A stretch of 39,953 bases of DNA from a virus (lineage: Duplodnaviria > Heunggongvirae > Uroviricota > Caudoviricetes): the IMG/VR virus record IMGVR_UViG_2563366923_000006; one strand, 5' to 3'. Shown here piece by piece: positions 1-39,577 of this stretch. The stretch's first letter is position 1, and every line of letters starts with the position of its first letter. Under the pieces are notes generated by a model. It saw only the letters and a program-made list of their open reading frames with translations. It did no database searches and was not told the DNA's origin. The translations under genes and the position numbers were made by a program.

Positions 1-462
1 ATGCTGGGTGATTGTTTCCCTCCTGATTTTAAGGCTAATTTTAGTCGTGAAAGAGGTATATCACCCGGTGATGTATTGTATCTTCATTGTGATTTTACGA
101 CCCCACCTAAAGTAAAATATATGGTGGTTGTTTGCTGTGAACCTCTTTTAGTTCTTCTAATAAATTCAGATATAAATGAATTTATTAAGAGAAACAATGA
201 TCTTATGGCTTGTCAGGTCGAAATTAATAGAGAGGACCATGATTTTCTTAAATGGGACTCATTTGTTAATTGCATTGAGGCTCATGCTGCTTTCGATCTT
301 GAAATTATTAAAGAGAAAATAGCCATCCAATATGGCGACGTGCTAAAAGGTCGCATTACAGATCATTGTATGAGACAAGTTCGATGTGCAGTTGAGATAT
401 CTAAAATCATGGTTAAACGGCATAAAAAACTGATACTCGCTGCTCTTCAACATTATGAATAA
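1..462 (+). CDS. Hypothetical protein, AT-rich; may be 5'-truncated by window edge
   Basis: 153-aa ORF beginning at window position 1; no recognisable family; convergent with the minus-strand operon to its right. Confidence 0.3.
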   Translation: MLGDCFPPDFKANFSRERGISPGDVLYLHCDFTTPPKVKYMVVVCCEPLLVLLINSDINEFIKRNNDLMACQVEINREDHDFLKWDSFVNCIEAHAAFDLEIIKEKIAIQYGDVLKGRITDHCMRQVRCAVEISKIMVKRHKKLILAALQHYE

Positions 463-483
463 ACCCACCTTCGGATGGGTTTA
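462..483. terminator. Hairpin between convergent genes (aaaccca-N-tgggttt with ttcg-type loop)
   Basis: Inverted repeat read directly; no strong T-run on either side, so terminator function is uncertain. Confidence 0.3.
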
Positions 484-495
484 TTCATATTCTAT

Positions 496-768
496 TTAAA
501 TGAGCCTTTGTTTATGGGTTCTGACCCTTTCCCACTCAGCACGCCCTTCTTCTCGCCTTTTGTCTATGTATTCCGCAAGATCCTGAATATTGATGCAACG
601 TTTTGCTTTTTGTGATGTGCCGATGCGATATGTTGGAACGGGCAACTTACAAGCGTTTGCTTTTGCTTCTGCCGTGGCTGGACTCATACCAAAGTATTTT
701 TGACTAACTGCTGAGAGTTCAATGTTTAGGGTATTGAATTCAGCCATCAGTAAAAACAAGGTATTCAT
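496..768 (-). CDS. PrtN-like (pyocin-activator family) small phage regulatory protein
   Basis: 90 aa; N-terminal MNTLFLLMAEF and overall pattern recalled as PrtN-family; GGAG 7 nt upstream of ATG. Confidence 0.5.
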   Translation of the reverse strand: MNTLFLLMAEFNTLNIELSAVSQKYFGMSPATAEAKANACKLPVPTYRIGTSQKAKRCINIQDLAEYIDKRREEGRAEWERVRTHKQRLI

Positions 769-804
769 ATCATTTCTCCATCATAACCGGCTGCACCCGG
801 TGAG

Positions 805-1620
805 TTACTTATTCATTTCAATAATATTATTTTCTATCATTGATTTATTTAAAACCAAAGAAGGAGCAAGATGGTTGTCTATTTTAAATAATGCATAACT
901 TTTAAACCGTTGGTGATATCCGTAACCAATAAGGATGCTAGAAAAATCTCTTAATTTATCTTCTTTAAGAACATGAAAATGAAATGGGTTGTCGCCATTT
1001 ATGGACAATGAAGCATCTATTATGCAGTATTTCTCTCCGTTGTCATTTGCATAGAAAAAAATATAAGACATTCTGTTTGTTAAGACAATGCCATTAAATT
1101 TTATTATGTCTGGAATTATTTTGTTTTTCATATTTGGTGCCACATGTTTATTTTCAGAAATACATTTGATTTCATCTCCAGATGTCGTGATTATATAAAA
1201 ATGAAACTTATCAGAAATATCTAACTTAACTACGCCATCATTATTATAAAGGCTGCTAAATTTTGGTAGTTCAACTTTTAAAGAATCATAGTTCTTTAGA
1301 AGAAGAGGGGAGTCAAATTTAATAACTTGTAGTATCCCTTTCCCTTCAACCTCCATATTGATTGAAGATATAGCAATTGCATTATCTCTTTTATTAGTCA
1401 GGATTATGGTTGATATATGCATGTCATATATTTTACTTACATTTGCTGAATACGATACTGTCACCTTTTTTGATATTTTTTGTACGCCAAAATATATAGT
1501 GAAGCCTGCGGCAAAAATAGATAAGAATTTAATGTCAAATAAGGACCATAACCACATTAGTTGCTCAATTGCTTCAGAGTTAATCATTTGCTTTACCATT
1601 ATCGCTGTAATACAACACAT
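805..1620 (-). CDS. Hypothetical membrane-anchored protein, strongly AT-rich; start uncertain (1638 TTG, or 1620/1599/1587 ATG)
   Basis: Long ORF with hydrophobic N-terminal segment (LMWLWSLFDIKFLSIFAAGFTIYFGV); no clear SD at any candidate start. Confidence 0.5.
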   Translation of the reverse strand: MCCITAIMVKQMINSEAIEQLMWLWSLFDIKFLSIFAAGFTIYFGVQKISKKVTVSYSANVSKIYDMHISTIILTNKRDNAIAISSINMEVEGKGILQVIKFDSPLLLKNYDSLKVELPKFSSLYNNDGVVKLDISDKFHFYIITTSGDEIKCISENKHVAPNMKNKIIPDIIKFNGIVLTNRMSYIFFYANDNGEKYCIIDASLSINGDNPFHFHVLKEDKLRDFSSILIGYGYHQRFKSYALFKIDNHLAPSLVLNKSMIENNIIEMNK

Positions 1621-1775
1621 GTGCGTATATATACGCAATGCAATTATTTTGCAAGTGCTTCATTTACTATCAATAGCTACGTCACGTTATCGTTTAATGG
1701 TTCTTTATAGGGGCGGCAATAGTTAAAATTATCGCTTCCGTAAACGCCCCCGCAGGGGCATTTGCAGTAATGAAA

Positions 1776-3911: not shown

Positions 3912-4115
3912 TTAACCTCCAGATTTCCGCGCATCTAAAGGCGCATTCTCATTTGGTGTGAACTGAATAGTTGTGCTGATATTGATTAATGCCCCGACAC
4001 ACAAGACTACGCACTCAGAGCAGATAGCAACTTCATCTTTTCCGCCTTTGGCGATGATTTTTTTTGCCTGCAGCTCGTTTGCGCCACAAAACGAGCATGT
4101 GAAATAACGGTTCAT
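3912..4115 (-). CDS. Small ClpX-type zinc-finger protein (C4), first gene after the PL-like promoter
   Basis: CSFCG...CSEC motif closely matches the ClpX N-terminal zinc-binding domain signature (recalled). Confidence 0.5.
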   Translation of the reverse strand: MNRYFTCSFCGANELQAKKIIAKGGKDEVAICSECVVLCVGALINISTTIQFTPNENAPLDARKSGG

Positions 4116-4299
4116 TTGCGCTCTCTTACACATAGTATTTAACGAATCATCCGGTCATTCATACGCCACCGGCGGCTACTTCGTGTTCGTCCTGACTGTT
4201 CGTTTTTGACATTTACTGACCGCTTACGACACATGCACCATGCACCGTGTTGCAACTAGATTTTGTTGTAATCCTGTAGTTGGTCTGGAACAAAAGATA

Positions 4300-4350
4300 A
4301 AATTAAAATGCGATATACGCAAGTAATATTTTGCGAGATGTGCAAAATTA
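4300..4350. promoter_or_regulatory. OL/PL-like operator-promoter region (TGCGATATACGCA and TTGCGAGATGTGCAA elements)
   Basis: TTGCG/CGCAA half-site motifs shared with the cI-cro intergenic region. Confidence 0.4.
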
Positions 4351-4356
4351 TGGGTG

Positions 4357-4380
4357 ATAAAAAGCCACCTTTCGGTGGCC
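4357..4380 (-). terminator. Rho-independent terminator downstream of the repressor gene
   Basis: On the minus strand: GCCACC-GAAA-GGTGGC hairpin followed by TTTTT. Confidence 0.55.
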
Positions 4381-4399: not shown

Positions 4400-5092
4400 T
4401 TAATTATGTCTCTTAAGGGTTTGCGACTGACTGATTAAGACCTTTCCAAAGACCATGAATCGGTGTTCGTTTTCGCTAGTAATTCCCCATTCACGGTAAA
4501 TCTGGTTATCAGAAATCACCAGCAGTTTGTCAGGAATCATTTGAAGTCTTTTAACGTATATTTTGTCATCAAAACCAAAGACATATATACCATCACCATC
4601 AAACTGATTGATGCTGACATCAACGAAGATGAGATCTCCTGGCTCAATGGTTGGACACATACTGTCCCCACGAACGTTGATAACTTTGATGTGATTGGCT
4701 GGTCGTCCGCCGAACATTGATACAGCATTATCAGTTCTGTATTCGATGGCATGAATCACATCAATGACATCACCGCCCTGGATAAGGCCATTTCCCGCAC
4801 TGGCACTGATATCCAACATTTCAATACGGAACACATCCTTCACCTGCGCAACATCCTCATCATTACTGTTTTTATATACAGTATTACTTTTGAGGGCAGA
4901 GGTAAAGAGATCAGCAATATCAACACCTAAGCTCTTGGCAATATTACTCAGTGTTTGTTCGGTAAATTGTTTCTGCTTACCCGTTTCTAAGCGCGAGATG
5001 TTCGCCGCATCTACTCCTATTGCTTCAGCGAGATCGGCGATTTTCATGTTCTTCGCTTGGCGAAGTTGTCTGACTCGTTTTCCTATGTTCAT
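4400..5092 (-). CDS. cI: CI-like phage repressor (XRE HTH + S24 LexA-like peptidase domain)
   Basis: N-terminal HTH; C-terminal S24-type domain; divergent from a Cro-like gene. Confidence 0.85.
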   Translation of the reverse strand: MNIGKRVRQLRQAKNMKIADLAEAIGVDAANISRLETGKQKQFTEQTLSNIAKSLGVDIADLFTSALKSNTVYKNSNDEDVAQVKDVFRIEMLDISASAGNGLIQGGDVIDVIHAIEYRTDNAVSMFGGRPANHIKVINVRGDSMCPTIEPGDLIFVDVSINQFDGDGIYVFGFDDKIYVKRLQMIPDKLLVISDNQIYREWGITSENEHRFMVFGKVLISQSQTLKRHN

Positions 5093-5189
5093 GCGTTTAT
5101 TACATTTCTTTATTGCGTGATAAGCAAATCAACTTGCGCAAAATACTTGCGTGAAATAACATGCATAACGCGCAATATTTGGAGGATAT
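5093..5189. promoter_or_regulatory. OR-like operator/promoter region between repressor and cro-like genes
   Basis: Repeated TTGCG(T/C) and CGCAA half-sites at 5113-5127, 5134-5141, 5148-5155, 5168-5175. Confidence 0.55.
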
Positions 5190-7771: not shown

Positions 7772-8097
7772 TGACGACGTTAACTCAATGCCAGCAGCAG
7801 GTGCTGGATATGCTGATTTCTTACCAGAAAGAACGTGGCTTCCCGCCAACCAATCAGGAGGTGGCAACCATGCTGGGATACCGTTCGGTGAATGCAGCGG
7901 TGGAGCATCTTCGAGCACTGGAGAAAAAAGGCGTCATCACGATAAAGCGTGGCGTGGCCCGGGGGATAACGCTTCATACCGCGATGAAGGACGACGACAG
8001 CGAGGCGGTCGGGATTATCCGCGCACTGCTTGCCGGTGAGGAAAACAGCAGGCTGCGTGCAGCCCACTGGTTACATGAGAGGGGCCTGAAAGTATGA
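7771..8097 (+). CDS. LexA N-terminal DNA-binding-domain-like protein without peptidase domain
   Basis: MTTLTQCQQQVLDMLISYQKERGFPPTNQEVATMLGYRSVNAAVEHLRALEKKGVI resembles the LexA winged-helix domain; TAATG coupling. Confidence 0.6.
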   Translation: MTTLTQCQQQVLDMLISYQKERGFPPTNQEVATMLGYRSVNAAVEHLRALEKKGVITIKRGVARGITLHTAMKDDDSEAVGIIRALLAGEENSRLRAAHWLHERGLKV

Positions 8098-8483
8098 AGC
8101 TGATTCTGCCTTTTCCGCCCAGTGTGAACACGTACTGGCGACACCCCAACAAAGGGGCATTTGCTGGTAAGAGCCTGATAAGCGAGGCGGGGCGAAAATT
8201 TCAGAGCGCGGCGTGTGCCGCCATCATTGAGCAGTTACGTCGTCTGCCGAAACCAACGTCGGCACCTGCTTCAGTGGAGATCGTGTTGTTTCCTCCGGAT
8301 AACCGGATCCGCGATCTGGACAACTATAACAAGGCGCTGTTTGACGCCCTGACCCACGCGGGTGTGTGGGAAGACGACAGTCAGGTGAAAAGAATGCTGG
8401 TTGAGTGGGGACCGGTTATCCCGGGAGGGAAGGTCGAGATCACTATCAGTAAGTACGAGAAAACGGCGGGTGCAGCCGCCTGA
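8094..8483 (+). CDS. rusA: RusA Holliday-junction resolvase
   Basis: LPFPPSVNTYWRH ... RDLDNYNKALFDALT motifs typical of RusA. Confidence 0.85.
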   Translation: MKLILPFPPSVNTYWRHPNKGAFAGKSLISEAGRKFQSAACAAIIEQLRRLPKPTSAPASVEIVLFPPDNRIRDLDNYNKALFDALTHAGVWEDDSQVKRMLVEWGPVIPGGKVEITISKYEKTAGAAA

Positions 8484-8502
8484 TCAAGAGGAGAAACGAA
8501 GT

Positions 8503-9312
8503 ATGAATAATCTGATGGTCATTGATGGTATTGAAGTTCGTCGTGATGCTTATGGGCGTTACAGCCTGAACGATCTGCATCGCGCAGCAGTAGCATCTGG
8601 TGCAAATGCCAGAACCAAGGAGCCAGGAAAGTTTCTTTCCAGCCAACAAACTGTTGAGCTTGTTCATGAATTAACCAACACCCAGAATTTGGGTGTTGAC
8701 CCGGTGAGTGTGATTCATGGGGGAAATGAACGGGGAACGTATGTCTGTAAGGAACTGGTGTATGCCTATGCAATGTGGATCAGCCCGTCATTCCATCTGA
8801 AGGTGATCCGTACTTTCGATATGGTAACCAGCGCACCGGAAAAATTATCCGGACAGGCTGCTGACAAGATGCAGGCTGGCGTGATTCTGCTGGACTTTAT
8901 GCGCCGGGAGTTAAATCTGTCTAACTCATCTGTGCTTGGGGCCTGTCAGAAACTCCAGGAGGCTGTTGGCTTACCGAATCTGGCACCGCGCTATGCCATT
9001 GATGCACCTGCTGACGCGCCTGATGGCTCAAGCCGCCCGACGCTGTCGCTGAGTGCACTGCTGAAGCAGTATGGTATCCGCCTGACGGCTAATCAGGCAT
9101 ATCACCAGATGGTGAAGCTGGGGATCGTCGAGCAGCGCGAACGATACAGCCGTACCGGGATTAACAACATCAAAAAATTCTGGTCGCTGACGGCGAAAGG
9201 CTGCATGTTCGGCAAGAACATCACCAGTCCCGCAAATCCGCGTGAGACGCAGCCGCATTTCTTCGAATCCCGATTCCCTGAGCTGTTAAAGCTGCTCGAT
9301 ACCGTTCATTGA
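8503..9312 (+). CDS. KilA-N domain protein (antirepressor-like)
   Basis: N-terminal KilA-N-like pattern; AAGAGGAG SD; internal ATG chosen over the longer tracked ORF. Confidence 0.65.
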   Translation: MNNLMVIDGIEVRRDAYGRYSLNDLHRAAVASGANARTKEPGKFLSSQQTVELVHELTNTQNLGVDPVSVIHGGNERGTYVCKELVYAYAMWISPSFHLKVIRTFDMVTSAPEKLSGQAADKMQAGVILLDFMRRELNLSNSSVLGACQKLQEAVGLPNLAPRYAIDAPADAPDGSSRPTLSLSALLKQYGIRLTANQAYHQMVKLGIVEQRERYSRTGINNIKKFWSLTAKGCMFGKNITSPANPRETQPHFFESRFPELLKLLDTVH

Positions 9313-9313
9313 G

Positions 9314-10309
9314 GTGACCGTGAGAGCACTACTGACCCCTGAAATAGCCCCGCGTATGGGGATTGTATTGTTCAGACCAGGTTCAGAGCTGATGCCCCTG
9401 TTTATGCAGGGGCGTGTCCTGCTGGAGCCTGAGCCGGAACGTTATTCATCTTTCGCCAGTGGTGCCGTTCCGGCGGCATCACAACCGCTGGCGGATGATC
9501 CTGCCGTTAGGGCCGTGTTCCGCAATGAGGCAGTGATCCGTCGTGCTGGTGGCGTGGAATGTCTTGAAAGCTGGTTACTTCGTGAAAAAGGCTGCCAGTG
9601 GCCTCATTCCGACTGGCACAGCGAGAACATGACCACAATGCGACACGCGCCGGGCGCGATCCGTCTGTGCTGGCACTGCGATAACCAGCTGCGCGATCAG
9701 TTCACGGAACGGCTGGAATCAATGGCAACGGATAACTGTGCCCGCTGGGTGTTGTCTGTAGTCCGTCGGGATCTCGGTTTTGATGATAACCATGCCGTGA
9801 CAATGCCGGAACTGTGCTGGTGGTTGATTCGTAATGACCTGGCGGATGCCTTACCGGAAAGTGCAGCCCGTAAGGCACTGAGATTACCGAAGCCTGTTGT
9901 GCCGTCTGTCACCCGGGAAAGTGACCTTGTGCCTTCGGTTCCTGCCACCAGCATCATCCAGGATAAGGCGAAAAAGGTGCTGGCGCTGAAAGTGGATCCG
10001 GAGTCGCCGGAGTCTTTTATGTTACGCCCAAAACGCCGCCGCTGGGTTAATGAAAAGTACACGCGCTGGGTTAAGACACAGCCGTGTGCATGTTGTGGAA
10101 AGCCTGCTGATGATCCCCACCACCTGATAGGCCACGGTCAGGGTGGAATGGGTACAAAAGCGCATGACCTCTTTGTGTTGCCTTTGTGCAGAAAGCATCA
10201 CGACGAGCTGCATGCGGATACCGTGGCATTTGAAGAGAAGTATGGCTCTCAGCTGGAGCTGATATTTCGTTTTATCGATCGTGCGCTGGCAATTGGCGTA
10301 TTGGCGTAA
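9314..10309 (+). CDS. DUF968-like phage protein with C-terminal HNH-like Cys/His motifs
   Basis: CACCGK...HHLIGHG...LCRKHHDELH at C-terminus; GTG start. Confidence 0.65.
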   Translation: MTVRALLTPEIAPRMGIVLFRPGSELMPLFMQGRVLLEPEPERYSSFASGAVPAASQPLADDPAVRAVFRNEAVIRRAGGVECLESWLLREKGCQWPHSDWHSENMTTMRHAPGAIRLCWHCDNQLRDQFTERLESMATDNCARWVLSVVRRDLGFDDNHAVTMPELCWWLIRNDLADALPESAARKALRLPKPVVPSVTRESDLVPSVPATSIIQDKAKKVLALKVDPESPESFMLRPKRRRWVNEKYTRWVKTQPCACCGKPADDPHHLIGHGQGGMGTKAHDLFVLPLCRKHHDELHADTVAFEEKYGSQLELIFRFIDRALAIGVLA

Positions 10310-25832: not shown

Positions 25833-27660
25833 ATTTGAGCTTAAGGCGTTGATCACCGGTGTCGACAGGCTTTCTCCCGCGCTGTCGAAAATGCAAAAGA
25901 AAATCCGGGGATTTAAACGCCAGGCGGAAGAAGCGTCACAGGGTGGGCTGGCGCTTGGTGGCGGACTGGCAGCGGGTCTGACGCTTTCCCTGAAATCTTA
26001 TGCCGATCAGGAAAACGCCGCCACCGGGCTGAAAGTCGCCATGATGGATGCGAACGGCGAGGTTGGAAAGAGCTTTCAGGACATCAATAAACTGGCTATT
26101 GGCCTGGGTAACCAGCTACCCGGTACAACGGCTGATTTCCAGAACATGATGCAGATGCTGGTGCGTCAGGGGATCCCGGCAGAAAACATTCTTGGTGGTG
26201 TGGGTAAAGCGACAGCTTATCTTGCGGTACAACTGAAAAAAACACCGGAAGCGGCTGCTGAGTTTGCTGCAAAGATGCAGGATGCTACCGGAACGGCGTC
26301 AGAAGACATGATGGGGCTGTTCGACACTATCCAGAAGGCGTTTTATCTGGGCGTTGACGATACCAACATGTTGTCCTTCTTCACTAAAACCAGTTCTGTT
26401 CTGAAGATGGTGAACAAGGACGGTCTTCAGGCTGCACAGAGCCTTGCCCCCATCAGCGTCATGATGGATCAGATGGGGATGAACGGGGAGTCGGCAGGTA
26501 ATGCCCTGCGAAAAGTTATCCAGTCCGGATTAAGCGTTAAGAAAATCAGGGACGTCAATAAAGTCATGGCCCGCCAGAGACTCGGGGTACAGCTCGATTT
26601 TACTGACGGCAAAGGAAGTTTTGGCGGTCTTGATAACATGTTCAGGCAACTGGCAAAGCTGCGAAAACTGACCGACGTTAAGCGAACAGGTGTACTTAAG
26701 GCAATATTTGGTGATGATGCCGAAACCCTTCAGGTGGTCAATGCACTAATCGATAAAGGAAAGGATGGCTACGATCAGATCCAGCAGAAGATGAATAAAC
26801 AGGCCAGCCTGAATAAACGTGTTCAGGCACAGCTTGGTACGCTGTCCAACCTGTGGGAGGCAATGACGGGGACCGCAACTAACGGCCTTGCGGCTATTGG
26901 CGGCGCATTTTCTGGTGACGCCAAAAATATTACGCAATGGCTGGGGGAGTTGGGGGAAAAATTCACGAAGTTTGCGGATGAAAATCCCCGGGTTATTCGC
27001 GGCGTCGTCGGGCTTGCTGCCGGTCTTGCGATTCTGAAACTGGGATTGATGGGCGTTGGCGGTGCCATCAGTATTGTCAGCAGGATCATGTCGATGACGC
27101 CGATTGGCATGATTGCGACGGCGATAGCCCTGGCTGCGGGATTAATTATCACTAACTGGGATGTTGTCGGACCTTATTTCAAGAAGCTCTGGGAAACCAT
27201 TGGTCCTTATTTTGAGGCTGGCTGGGAACTTCTGAAGAAGGTTTTTGCCTGGTCGCCGCTGGGGATGGTAATCAATAACTGGGGACCGGTTGTTAAGTGG
27301 TTTCAGGATATGTGGGACAAGCTGAAGCCAATTATTGAGTGGTTTACCGACAGTTCCGGTGACACGGTCGATGCCATTAACTCGGCGCAGTGGGGCGCGG
27401 GTGCTTATGATGCTTATGGGACGGGAATACCGGCGCGGGGATACACACCTTATCCGGCGGTAGATCCGGCTCAGTCAAACAACGCCTCCGATGCTACAGG
27501 CCCGAATCCCTTCATGATTAACAAAGCTTCTGCGCCAAAAGTTGACGGTGAGATCAAGGTCTCTTTTGTGAATTCGCCTCCGGGTATGCGGGTTATGGAA
27601 ACGCGATCCAGCGGTTTTGATATAAATCACGATGTTGGCTATACGCATATTGGCAGATGA
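25825..27660 (+). CDS. Tail tape measure protein
   Basis: 611 aa, Ala/Gly-rich with hydrophobic segments. Confidence 0.85.
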   Translation: MAEFELKALITGVDRLSPALSKMQKKIRGFKRQAEEASQGGLALGGGLAAGLTLSLKSYADQENAATGLKVAMMDANGEVGKSFQDINKLAIGLGNQLPGTTADFQNMMQMLVRQGIPAENILGGVGKATAYLAVQLKKTPEAAAEFAAKMQDATGTASEDMMGLFDTIQKAFYLGVDDTNMLSFFTKTSSVLKMVNKDGLQAAQSLAPISVMMDQMGMNGESAGNALRKVIQSGLSVKKIRDVNKVMARQRLGVQLDFTDGKGSFGGLDNMFRQLAKLRKLTDVKRTGVLKAIFGDDAETLQVVNALIDKGKDGYDQIQQKMNKQASLNKRVQAQLGTLSNLWEAMTGTATNGLAAIGGAFSGDAKNITQWLGELGEKFTKFADENPRVIRGVVGLAAGLAILKLGLMGVGGAISIVSRIMSMTPIGMIATAIALAAGLIITNWDVVGPYFKKLWETIGPYFEAGWELLKKVFAWSPLGMVINNWGPVVKWFQDMWDKLKPIIEWFTDSSGDTVDAINSAQWGAGAYDAYGTGIPARGYTPYPAVDPAQSNNASDATGPNPFMINKASAPKVDGEIKVSFVNSPPGMRVMETRSSGFDINHDVGYTHIGR

Positions 27661-27676
27661 CGGAACCAGATATAAT
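27650..27676 (+). promoter_or_regulatory. Moron promoter candidate (TTGGCA-N15-TATAAT)
   Basis: Sigma70-like hexamers read directly. Confidence 0.45.
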
Positions 27677-27712
27677 TTGTCTTTAAGTTTGTTATCAACT
27701 GAAGGGAAATCT

Positions 27713-28090
27713 ATGGGTCTGTTACATGCCATTATAGGTAATGCCGGTGAAATTAATGCATCAGATGCACAACAGGAATTAGGGGCTGTTTTAGGTGAGG
27801 GAGAAAATGTCGAACTTGCCTATAAACTCATTCGTGACCAAATTATTCTGACTAACAGAAGGTTAATTTTTATTGATAAGCAGGGTGTCACAGGGAAAAA
27901 AGTAGAGTATCGTTCGATTCCTTATAAATCTGTGACAAACTTTTCTATTGAAACCGCCGGGCATCTTGATCTTGATGCTGAAATGAAGATATGGATTTCT
28001 GGTATTGCAGAACCGATAAAAAAACAGTTCAGTAAAGGAGCAAACATTTATAAATTGCAGGCTCATCTGGCTCAAAAAATAGCAGGGTAA
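27713..28090 (+). CDS. AT-rich moron protein with bacterial PH-domain-like pattern
   Basis: GAAGGGAAA upstream; composition visibly AT-richer than flanks; own promoter and terminator. Confidence 0.6.
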   Translation: MGLLHAIIGNAGEINASDAQQELGAVLGEGENVELAYKLIRDQIILTNRRLIFIDKQGVTGKKVEYRSIPYKSVTNFSIETAGHLDLDAEMKIWISGIAEPIKKQFSKGANIYKLQAHLAQKIAG

Positions 28091-35999: not shown

Positions 36000-36695
36000 T
36001 TATGCACTATTTTTAGGTCTTGTAACCCGAGGTGGGAGTTGTTTGGTTATATGTTCAAGTGATTTTTTGCCCAAGATAGTTCTTTGGACAAAACTTTCTA
36101 TAGCTTCTAGCATTTGTTCGAACTCACTTTTATTCGGGCTCCAACTGCGATGTGCGGCGGCGTTTCCTGCATCAATTACTGAAGATATAACGCATGCCTC
36201 AGTGTCGCCTATGACTCCATCTTGTTTTAATTTTTCAACTTTTTCACCAAGCGGCAAACCGGGGTGAATTTGTAACAGTTCAGCAGTTCGATCAAAAATC
36301 GTCCGTAAACCGATGGACGAAAGAATGAAATGGTCAGAAGTATATGAAGAATACATTTCATTAAATATTTGAAAGAGCTGACGATCAACTGATTCAAGCT
36401 TGGATAACCATATCGGAGCTTGAAATGTTTCAGCGGCAGGATAGGTAGTGATCATATCTATAGGCGTTTCTACAAATTCACCATCACGATATTCGTGGGT
36501 AGTATGCTCACTGAAGTGTTCGTTGTGGTGATAGAAGACAGTATCACAGCCATTGCATTGGAGTAGGTGATGGTAATGGTACCCATAAACTGGATATTGG
36601 GAATCCTCCCAGCTAGTGGTTAGCTTCCCATGCACAGTGCAGTTACGTAACCCACCGCATGTAGGGCAAAGAGCCTTGAGTATTTCCTTTTTCAT
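36000..36695 (-). CDS. Cargo protein: N-terminal zinc ribbon (CxxC...CxxC) plus C-terminal helical domain resembling DUF4145
   Basis: Cys pairs C10/C13 and C47/C50; C-terminal GDTEACVISSVIDAGNAAAH resembles the DUF4145 GNxxAH motif (recalled); AT-rich. Confidence 0.55.
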   Translation of the reverse strand: MKKEILKALCPTCGGLRNCTVHGKLTTSWEDSQYPVYGYHYHHLLQCNGCDTVFYHHNEHFSEHTTHEYRDGEFVETPIDMITTYPAAETFQAPIWLSKLESVDRQLFQIFNEMYSSYTSDHFILSSIGLRTIFDRTAELLQIHPGLPLGEKVEKLKQDGVIGDTEACVISSVIDAGNAAAHRSWSPNKSEFEQMLEAIESFVQRTILGKKSLEHITKQLPPRVTRPKNSA

Positions 36696-37353: not shown

Positions 37354-38451
37354 TCAAGAGGTCTTATTTCTGCTCCTTTGGAGCTCTTCAAAACGATTAT
37401 GTAAAGATTTCGGATACAGTTCGGTATATACCTGCCATAGCACGTTTAATGAACGATGCCCTGTAACTTGGGCGACTTCCTCAATACTAAAACCAGCCTC
37501 AAATAAGCGACTTGCCCCTTCTCTACGCAAATCATGGTATCGCAGATCCTTAATACCTAATTTGCTTCTTACTCTCTGAAATCCCGCAGTAACAGAAGTG
37601 CTGTTATATGGAAAAATGAATTCCGATTTTTGGGGCTGTCGTTGGACGATATCCCAGGCTTCCCCAAGCAAGGCTACTTTCATGTGGTTACCTTCCTTTT
37701 TGCGTGGATCTTTCCTGTCTCTTACGAGTATAGATTTTTGTTCCTGGTCGAGATCTTCCCATCGTAACCGGCATACTTCTCCGATTCGCATACAGGACCA
37801 TACAGAAAATTTGAGGATATCAACGAACGGAATTTTTGAGCATTTATGAGTAGATCGTTGTTGAAGGCCTGCAATGAGCATGTCCAGTTCATCAGATGCT
37901 GGTCTACGATTACGACGGTTTGATTTACCAATCAAACCAAGTTTAAGTAGATATGGGCGAGCGCTTTTCGCCGGGTTTGATGTGTAATTAATTCCGTATA
38001 CAGGTTTGGCCGCATCCAGAACACTGCCAAGATAACTAACATCGTGGCTGACTGTTGCAGGACCTGCACCAGCGTTGTTTCTTAGCCTGCAATGTTCAAT
38101 TACGTCATTTTCTGTCAGTTCAGATAGTTTGATCGCGGAGATGTCACTATCCATAAGCAGTTCCAGCACATATCTTTTAGTACGGCCTGCTTTACCTCCG
38201 GCATTTGGGTCATTTAAATATTTGTGTAGTAAGTCACGGACTGTAAGTCCGTCAACTGCATTTGATGATGGAATGCCATATAGATCTAATTCCATCACTT
38301 TCTGTGTGCCCCATGTTTTGGCATGAGCATGTTTAGGGAATGTTTTGCTTTCCCTGTAAGTGATAACACCTTTTTCTTTGATAATCACATTACAGCGATA
38401 GCGTGGTGTGCCATCGGATTTTAGTCGTTTCTCTATGTTATAGTACGCCAT
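37354..38451 (-). CDS. int: Tyrosine integrase (dusA-associated type)
   Basis: 365 aa with C-terminal catalytic motifs (HDLRR ... VTGH ... Y); abuts dusA. Confidence 0.9.
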   Translation of the reverse strand: MAYYNIEKRLKSDGTPRYRCNVIIKEKGVITYRESKTFPKHAHAKTWGTQKVMELDLYGIPSSNAVDGLTVRDLLHKYLNDPNAGGKAGRTKRYVLELLMDSDISAIKLSELTENDVIEHCRLRNNAGAGPATVSHDVSYLGSVLDAAKPVYGINYTSNPAKSARPYLLKLGLIGKSNRRNRRPASDELDMLIAGLQQRSTHKCSKIPFVDILKFSVWSCMRIGEVCRLRWEDLDQEQKSILVRDRKDPRKKEGNHMKVALLGEAWDIVQRQPQKSEFIFPYNSTSVTAGFQRVRSKLGIKDLRYHDLRREGASRLFEAGFSIEEVAQVTGHRSLNVLWQVYTELYPKSLHNRFEELQRSRNKTS

Positions 38452-38468
38452 TACACGACCTCGTTATT

Positions 38469-38505
38469 TCGGGTTCCCATAAAACGTGGGAACCTGTGCG
38501 GGAAC
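38469..38505. repeat. Three copies of a 9-bp GGGAACC-containing motif (one inverted) in the int-dusA intergenic region
   Basis: CGGGTTCCC 38469-38477, GTGGGAACC 38486-38493, GCGGGAACC 38498-38505. Confidence 0.5.
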
Positions 38506-38539
38506 CTAACGCGAGAAAAATAGCCTGAAATGTTCAAAA

Positions 38540-39577
38540 ATGCACGATAATCATGAAACACAAAAAATTAATCAAACCAGCGTGATGCCTGAAAAAACTG
38601 GTGTTTACTGGAATTCTCGGTTTAGCATTGCTCCTATGCTCGACTGGACGGACAGACATTGCCGCTATTTCTTGCGTCTGCTTTCCCGCAATACGTTGCT
38701 GTATACTGAAATGGTAACTACAGGGGCGATTATTCACGGTAAAGGTGATTACCTGGCGTATAGTGAAGAAGAACATCCGGTAGCGTTGCAACTCGGCGGT
38801 AGCGATCCGGCGGCGCTGGCGCAGTGTGCGAAGCTGGCAGAAGCGCGTGGATATGATGAGATCAACCTGAATGTCGGCTGCCCGTCTGACCGGGTGCAGA
38901 ACGGCATGTTTGGTGCGTGTCTGATGGGTAATGCGCAGCTGGTTGCCGACTGCGTGAAAGCGATGCGCGATGTGGTGTCGATTCCGGTGACGGTGAAAAC
39001 GCGTATTGGCATCGACGACCAGGACAGCTATGAATTTCTCTGCGATTTCATCAACACCGTTTCCGGCAAAGGCGAGTGTGAGATGTTCATCATCCATGCA
39101 CGTAAAGCCTGGCTTTCGGGGTTAAGTCCGAAAGAAAACCGTGAGATCCCGCCGCTCGATTATCCGCGTGTGTATCAACTGAAGCGTGACTTTCCGCATC
39201 TGACAATGTCGATTAACGGTGGTATCAAGTCGCTGGAAGAGGCCAAAGCACACCTGCAACATATGGATGGCGTGATGGTCGGGCGCGAGGCGTATCAGAA
39301 TCCGGGTATTCTGGCGGCGGTAGACCGGGAGATCTTTGGTTCCTCGGATATCGATGCCGATCCGGTGGCGGTAGTGCGCGCCATGTATCCGTACATTGAG
39401 CGTGAACTCAGCCAGGGGACGTATCTCGGTCATATTACCCGGCATATGTTGGGCTTGTTCCAGGGTATTCCTGGCGCGCGGCAGTGGCGGCGTTATTTAA
39501 GTGAAAATGCCCATAAAGCGGGTGCAGACATTAATGTGCTGGAACACGCGCTCAAACTGGTGGCGGATAAGCGTTAA
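38540..39577 (+). CDS. dusA: tRNA-dihydrouridine synthase A; 5' end probably element-derived
   Basis: 345 aa typical DusA; first ~35 codons AT-rich unlike the rest of the gene. Confidence 0.9.

Follow-up and report, generated by a model that had tools for sequence, protein, structure and literature searches.

The IMG/VR virus record IMGVR_UViG_2563366923_000006 was analysed over its whole length of 39,953 nucleotides, referred to here as the window. It is an mEp460-type lambdoid Escherichia coli prophage sitting in the 5' end of dusA. The region at 496-1638 holds the final two genes of the leftward early gene string of this prophage, both on the minus strand. The distal gene (496..768), called xis below, encodes a protein of 90 amino acids (aa) from the PrtN/PF11112 family, which is most likely an RdfN-type excisionase, or recombination directionality factor (RDF). 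Its neighbour (805..1587), an open reading frame (ORF) that we call ORF260, has a GC content of 29% and encodes a probably membrane-tethered protein of 260 aa, a member of the uncharacterised phrog_14996 family. Between the two lies a spacer (769..804, minus strand), in which the xis Shine-Dalgarno sequence (GGAG) was read directly and which contains the border, at 800/801, of the AT-rich cassette carrying ORF260. On its other side ORF260 has a cassette-borne upstream region (1588..1726, minus strand) with a weak promoter-like match. There follows a conserved terminator-like hairpin (1727..1775, minus strand), located directly downstream of yfdQ, at the end of the conserved early-left block.

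Four complete E. coli chromosomes carry the first 1730 bases of the window at 99.8-99.9% identity. With one of them, NZ_CP124436, the locus could be extended leftward, which revealed the context of the prophage boundary. The gene order there is zur, a short 5' remnant of dusA, a gene with a Panacea domain, the ORF at 1-462, the PrtN-family gene and the 260-aa hypothetical gene. It continues with yfdQ and yfdP, and then with the cI/cro immunity region and the replication genes. In the genomes with this exact DNA, the dusA 5' remnant is on the left side of the element, beside zur.

An earlier reading of the bare sequence (the original prediction) had given the product of the AT-rich gene a length of 277 aa. 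This requires a TTG start at 1638, which was rejected. All 14 homologues in alignment A1 (39-93% identity) begin at the ATG at 1587, with N-termini of the form Met-(Ile/Leu/Tyr)-Asn, in which M1 and N3 are invariant. The phrog_14996 match (E 6e-176) runs from residue 18 to residue 277 of the long ORF, and the gene annotated in RefSeq has 783 nt. All three point to the ATG at 1587 and a protein of 260 aa.

The cassette at 801-1726 has 926 bp, a single gene and a GC content of 30%, compared with 51.8% for the rest of the prophage. The longer frame at 805-1638 (minus strand) has 29% GC, and 0.26 at third codon positions (GC3), as against 45.7% GC in the neighbouring yfdQ; the strong AT bias noted earlier was thus borne out. 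The borders are sharp. Other phages are homologous to the xis region only up to 800, and Stx phages, Ayreon and others match the yfdQ block from 1726-1727 onward. Just there lies the hairpin at 1727-1775 (RNA fold of -23 kcal/mol, z -3.7), for which phage Ayreon carries a terminator annotation. In mEp460, Lys8385Vzw and PhiR40_1, the same slot is filled by 2.3-3.6 kb of exonuclease, ea22-like, eaE-like and HD-hydrolase genes. Among 5426 complete E. coli genomes, 99 had the cassette, always whole and single-copy, while 741 had the xis region. The cassette is therefore accessory, and its gene does not belong to the core of this phage group. In agreement with the original prediction, it is horizontally acquired cargo, located distally in the early-left string. 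Its borders lie at 800/801 and 1726/1727, and it replaces the exo/ea22/eaE/HD-hydrolase block of the relatives. In kind it is ordinary prophage cargo. A match to window positions 518-1730, that is, to xis and the cassette, was split in two by an IS1X2 insertion in strain E89 (NZ_CP121157), in this one genome only.

ORF260 is under purifying selection and not decaying. The gene was intact at 260 aa in each of the 18 copies collected. The ratio of nonsynonymous to synonymous substitution rates (dN/dS) was 0.35 relative to a 96% identical allele and 0.07 relative to a Citrobacter homologue. Among 1.84 billion cluster representatives, a profile search retrieved 226 relatives at E <= 0.001, nearly all of them 235-275 aa long and with the same layout. 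All 133 full-length members, ORF260 included, matched phrog_14996 (PHROGs v4, unknown function) from end to end. A search with a 15-sequence alignment gave family matches in only three species-representative genomes. Near-invariant residues in the family are K37, N65, P94, S111 and C142. When PDB sequences were searched with a family profile, only a chance match was obtained (E 0.15), and a literature search on the protein accessions and the PHROG identifier found nothing.

The AlphaFold2 model of the full-length protein, with a mean predicted local distance difference test score (pLDDT) of 82, has a helix at residues 4-39, a beta-sandwich at ~42-141 and an alpha/beta domain at ~156-260. As modelled, the beta-sandwich is Ig-like, and the C-terminal domain, of unassigned fold, has no neighbour among solved structures. 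The predicted N-terminal hydrophobic anchor corresponds to a single hydrophobic segment in the product, and one such N-terminal segment recurs across the 133 members (mean H17 1.84). The net charge is +2.1 on its C-terminal flank and -0.4 on its N-terminal flank, and in 102 of the 133 members lysine and arginine are richer on the C-terminal side. Because the positive charge lies C-terminal of the segment, the positive-inside rule leads us to infer an N-out/C-in topology. The globular part would then probably be cytoplasmic and tethered to the inner membrane.

The genomic neighbourhood of homologues was surveyed in about a dozen contexts, with no control set and no statistical test. No partner gene was conserved across these contexts. 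In Citrobacter and four viral contigs (at least four lineages), the homologue directly precedes a small xis-like ORF and an integrase gene at the end of the element. In Klebsiella and several viral contigs it is found in the early-right region of prophages, where it follows a DNA methyltransferase. In Pseudomonas it is an orphan on the chromosome, within a small variable islet, and on one contig the homologue stands at the end of a small integrase/resolvase islet. The genes have ~30% GC in hosts of ~50% GC, and every copy examined has an AT-rich upstream spacer of at least 83 bp, compatible with a promoter of its own.

Several of the neighbours are known from defence. In two Pantoea species, the homologue is convergent to a type II-A retron (reverse transcriptase, E 6e-107; NDT effector, E 2e-59), beside a P4-like primase. 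On two viral contigs it follows IetA-IetS (E 2e-143 and 4e-290) at a distance of 238 bp. One Citrobacter variant has it two genes away from a methyl-directed restriction enzyme (mREase_II). A metagenome contig has it among HEPN_LA2681, DUF4062 and MvaT genes, and on other viral contigs it is next to a DUF4145/MtlR-type HEPN-like gene. Some details of these loci were recorded in passing. The Pantoea retron occupies 7968-9984 (L021, L022), and L022 also has an orphan CdiA-CT RNase A/CdiI pair nearby. On the IMG/VR contigs L045 (2357-5763) and L047, the IetA-IetS system is complete and lies, within a prophage, between a large DNA methyltransferase gene and the ORF260 homologue, with a DNA polymerase III theta-like gene immediately downstream.

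Solitary AT-rich genes in varied mobile contexts are the pattern expected of cargo involved in genetic conflict. The role that we favour for ORF260 is a stand-alone anti-phage function, either superinfection exclusion or abortive infection, as the original prediction had suggested. The neighbouring defence genes make this idea plausible as a proposal, and we would put its likelihood a little short of even. The Panacea-type gene pair ~30 bp beyond xis, described below, was also counted in favour of a role in conflict. In the proposed mechanism, the Ig-like domain and the C-terminal domain of novel fold would recognise a component of the incoming phage on the cytoplasmic side. The effect would then be exerted at the inner membrane via the helix, and the infection would be blocked. 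Our best explanation of the region as a whole, on which we are evenly divided, combines an RdfN excisionase with a swapped-in cassette, in which ORF260 would act as a stand-alone anti-phage gene. A wider reading is somewhat more tentative. Here, phrog_14996 would be a previously unrecognised single-gene, membrane-linked anti-phage system, carried on an AT-rich cassette of ~0.9 kb that spreads among prophages, P4-like satellites and defence islands of Gammaproteobacteria.

A number of results weigh against an anti-phage role. ORF260 has no Pfam or NCBIfam match, and no Pfam family was common to the 133 members scanned. PADLOC v2.0.0 gave no match for it at E <= 1, and neither sequence nor fold linked it to a known defence or exclusion protein. 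The invariant residues fit no nameable catalytic motif, and no conserved catalytic motif was recognised. The hydrophobic segment of ORF260 itself is borderline, with a Kyte-Doolittle peak of 1.51 in a 19-residue window and with an Asp and a Lys inside it, and the topology was called by counting charges and not with a dedicated predictor. Known defence genes adjoin the homologues in roughly half of the ~12 contexts, a count made without statistical control. The promoter-like match upstream of ORF260 (-35 TTGATA at 1673-1668, -10 CAAAAT at 1651-1646) was not above chance, a consensus scan having found 12 sites where 13.0 were expected from shuffled sequence. Finally, ORF260 comes after the terminator-like hairpin in the early-left string and may be expressed perhaps only after induction. 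Such timing would suit a role in the lytic cycle better than protection of the lysogen.

In the main rival account, ORF260 is an early lytic accessory protein, functionally analogous to the non-essential ea or kil-type genes of lambda. The leftward promoter would drive its synthesis, and only once the prophage is induced; the protein would then promote phage growth through some membrane process of the host and would not serve to protect the lysogen. We regard this as unlikely, though by no means negligible. The gene is on the same strand as yfdP-yfdQ-xis and in line with them, downstream of cI, and it occupies exactly the slot that holds exo, ea22 and eaE genes in relatives. The chance-level promoter match and a terminator-like hairpin ahead of the gene, as found in antiterminated operons, would also fit. 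However, homologues exist outside phage early operons: the Pseudomonas orphan, the integrase/resolvase islet, the copies beside the retron and P4-like primase, and the one in the HEPN/DUF4062 island. Within phages, moreover, the position varies between the left end and the early-right region, and the upstream spacer of at least 83 bp accompanies every copy examined.

With an anti-phage role as the preferred reading for ORF260, the gene is the remaining novelty of the locus, a member of a compact, well-conserved family without a Pfam entry. The family recurs in the variable slots of validated defence systems. If it does exclude phages, it would represent a new membrane-linked mechanism based on a single gene, and the end of dusA prophages nearest to xis would be a defence hotspot, with the Panacea cassette on one side and a DUF4145 gene near int. 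The latter gene (36000-36695, minus strand) encodes a DUF4145 protein of 231 aa (E 9e-10) in a GC-poor stretch close to the integrase end. It may be a second piece of accessory cargo, at the opposite end of the prophage; DUF4145/HEPN-like genes also adjoin ORF260 homologues elsewhere (L046).

The 90-aa product of xis matched the Pfam family PF11112 (PyocinActivator) at E 1.5e-22 and 79.9 bits (cut-off 24.2), over model positions 1-73 of 74. The original prediction had named this family correctly, but had seen in the protein a small regulator, and an RdfN-type excisionase is more likely. The protein falls in phrog_1300, 'excisionase' (E 6e-39), for which the PHROGs class is integration and excision, and gp25 of mEp460 carries an excisionase annotation. 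Durand et al. (2021; PMC8409611) described dusA-specific elements that lack a classical xis gene and have instead a small PF11112 protein, RdfN. RdfN is needed for integrase-mediated excision, is sufficient together with Int, and is the sole RDF of the dusA-specific element IMEVchUSA3; such elements supply a new dusA 5' end (PMC8409611). Three features of the RdfN-type context were present at 496-768, namely the domain, in a protein of <100 aa, integration at the dusA 5' end with the dusA reading frame restored, and a partner integrase adjoining dusA. Because all three were found together, we read the gene as the prophage excisionase, most likely acting with the integrase encoded at 37354-38451. 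The arrangement of int, a Panacea or other cassette, and xis is the same in mEp460 and Lys8385Vzw. After induction, the protein would be transcribed from the leftward promoter, bind DNA near the attachment sites and steer the integrase toward excision. Nothing in the data calls for an additional role as a transcription factor.

It seems improbable that the protein serves mainly to activate transcription as PrtN does, for instance that of late or tail genes, instead of acting as an excisionase. The Pfam family does take its name from PrtN, the pyocin activator of Pseudomonas aeruginosa, which acts on pyocin or tail-like gene promoters by way of P-box repeats and is under the control of a cI-like repressor, and many RDFs double as transcription factors. 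However, the gene is the att-proximal member of the early-left string, where xis is classically found, and once the phage has circularised, nothing but the Panacea cassette and attP lies between it and int. Across mEp460-like phages the PF11112 gene has been kept together with the dusA-type integrase, and PHROGs places its family under integration and excision. For a dusA element, RdfN alone was enough for Int-mediated excision (PMC8409611). The excisionase is thus known biology. Its annotation as 'pyocin activator PrtN family protein' masks a role in excision in hundreds of E. coli prophages.

The AT-rich leader of ORF260 contains a perfect 16-nt palindrome, TGCGTATATATACGCA (1622..1637), with a 14-nt core at 1623-1636. 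The original prediction had placed it two positions too far to the left, at 1621-1634, and had it overlap the start region; it actually sits 35-50 nt upstream of the true ATG. It had also been likened to the operators of the immunity region. The operator motif there is TTGC-N7-GCA(A/T), with four sites at 4308-4345 and 5113-5175 and two further matches elsewhere in the window. The four sites flank an S24-type cI gene (4400-5092) and are likely the OL and OR operators. Two other features of this region were noted, a terminator-like hairpin (4363-4380) that follows cI and, just left of the immunity region, a 73-aa ORF (3912-4133, minus strand) with a ClpX-type C4 zinc finger (PF06689, E 1.4e-10).

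One part of the likeness held. The 10-mer TTGCGTATAT was found only twice in the window, at the palindrome and, on the same strand, at 4322 in the leftward operator region. The palindrome is also just downstream of the weak promoter-like match (1673-1646). An operator for the prophage repressor or another regulator, tying ORF260 expression to immunity, is nevertheless very improbable. The half-sites of the palindrome are spaced as TTGC-N10-GCAC, in contrast to N7 in the operators of the window. The identical palindrome is found in genomes with unrelated cI proteins and operator sets (L001, L002), and overall it co-occurs with three unrelated cI repressors. Its right arm is broken in 8 of the 18 copies, by a G-to-A change in three and by a 2-bp deletion in five, and these changes make up two of only six variable upstream positions. 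Citrobacter and Klebsiella homologues are without it. By chance, a window with this composition should hold 0.64 palindromes of at least 16 nt, and 47% of simulated windows had one; the RNA of this one is no more stable than shuffled versions (z -0.23). The operator reading was rejected on the motif search, the comparison with two other immunity types and the 18-copy alignment. A comparison of two sequences had suggested a conserved upstream region, with 1 difference in 139 positions as against 32 in 783 of the coding sequence; with 12 unique sequences (6/139 and 46/783) the contrast was gone. A LexA box was rejected by eye, the LexA motif being CTG-N10-CAG and that of the palindrome GCG-N8-CGC. 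We judge the palindrome to be a chance or unconstrained feature of the AT-rich leader, and not an operator.

The extreme AT content and the absence of an annotated domain might suggest that ORF260 is junk DNA with a spurious or decaying reading frame. This is scarcely credible and already effectively refuted by the conservation data, given the 18 intact copies out of 18, the dN/dS of 0.07 relative to the Citrobacter homologue, the 226 family representatives of matching length and architecture, and confident structure predictions (pLDDT 82 and 90.5).

Beyond xis, the window begins with ORF153 (1..462, plus strand), a convergent gene of 153 aa with 35% GC and no family match. The convergent AT-rich ORF at the window edge had been pointed out in the original prediction. 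The two genes are separated by a hairpin (454..489) that appears to be a bidirectional terminator for ORF153 and xis, with z-scores of -5.9 on the plus strand and -6.5 on the minus strand. ORF153 comes second in a cassette of two genes. Its partner, in the ~590 bp just left of the window (L001, 7414-7995), was located from the RefSeq context and encodes an antitoxin domain of the Panacea/SocA type (PF13274, E 7e-20). PhiR40_1 has a YafO toxin in this slot, and other relatives have unrelated small ORFs. ORF153 looks like the candidate, possibly new, toxin of a PanA-PanT-like toxin-antitoxin pair between attL and xis.

At the right end of the window are the tyrosine integrase gene (37354..38451, minus strand; PF00589, E 8e-21), which adjoins attR and dusA, a full-length dusA (38540-39577), 88 bp from the integrase gene, and pspG. 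The first ~30 codons of this dusA (38540-38650) are unlike the chromosomal remnant at the left junction, and both converge at the FSIAPMLD motif. Since the N-terminus differs from the left remnant, the element provides a new dusA 5' end, presumably including a promoter. The position of attR is near 38620-38650. No exact att repeats of at least 12 nt were found between the left junction and 38380-38760, which is expected for an element that brings a diverged dusA 5' end. Further inside the prophage, the GC content falls locally to 0.40 at 27501-28000 (approximately the ORF at 27632-28090), within a late-gene region of 52-60% GC.

Among known families, phrog_14996 names ORF260 as a member, but the family is without functional annotation and provides no function for it. 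The closest parallels for the proposed role are the single-gene membrane exclusion proteins of prophages and phages. Lactococcal Sie2009, P22 SieA, HK97 gp15 and T4 Imm are of this kind, and AbiP is a membrane-anchored abortive-infection protein. ORF260 resembles them as a small to mid-sized, AT-rich and dispensable gene of patchy distribution, encoding a probable N-terminal membrane anchor. Like them, it stands without a partner gene close to the integration module of a temperate phage. It differs in the predicted cytoplasmic location of most of the protein and in having no similarity to PADLOC defence models. The cassette as such compares well with the 'ea'/b-region of lambda-type phages and with moron cassettes. 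Like these, it fills the non-essential early-left gap between recombination genes and xis and has been swapped with sharp borders. A classical moron has its own promoter and terminator, whereas at 801-1726 neither could be demonstrated above chance.

For the product of xis, the system to compare is RdfN itself. RdfN belongs to an IncC-mobilisable island and is expressed from an AcaCD-responsive promoter, whereas here the element is a tailed prophage, in which the leftward promoter of the phage presumably drives expression. Reports describe RdfN proteins as highly divergent, and the likeness of the 496-768 protein to the tested RdfN rests on domain and context, not on identity. Both proteins have the same Pfam domain and are small (76 aa in RdfN, 90 aa here). 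Both elements are inserted at the dusA 5' end and supply a new one, and in both, the tyrosine integrase gene is not adjacent to the gene of its excision partner when the element is integrated.

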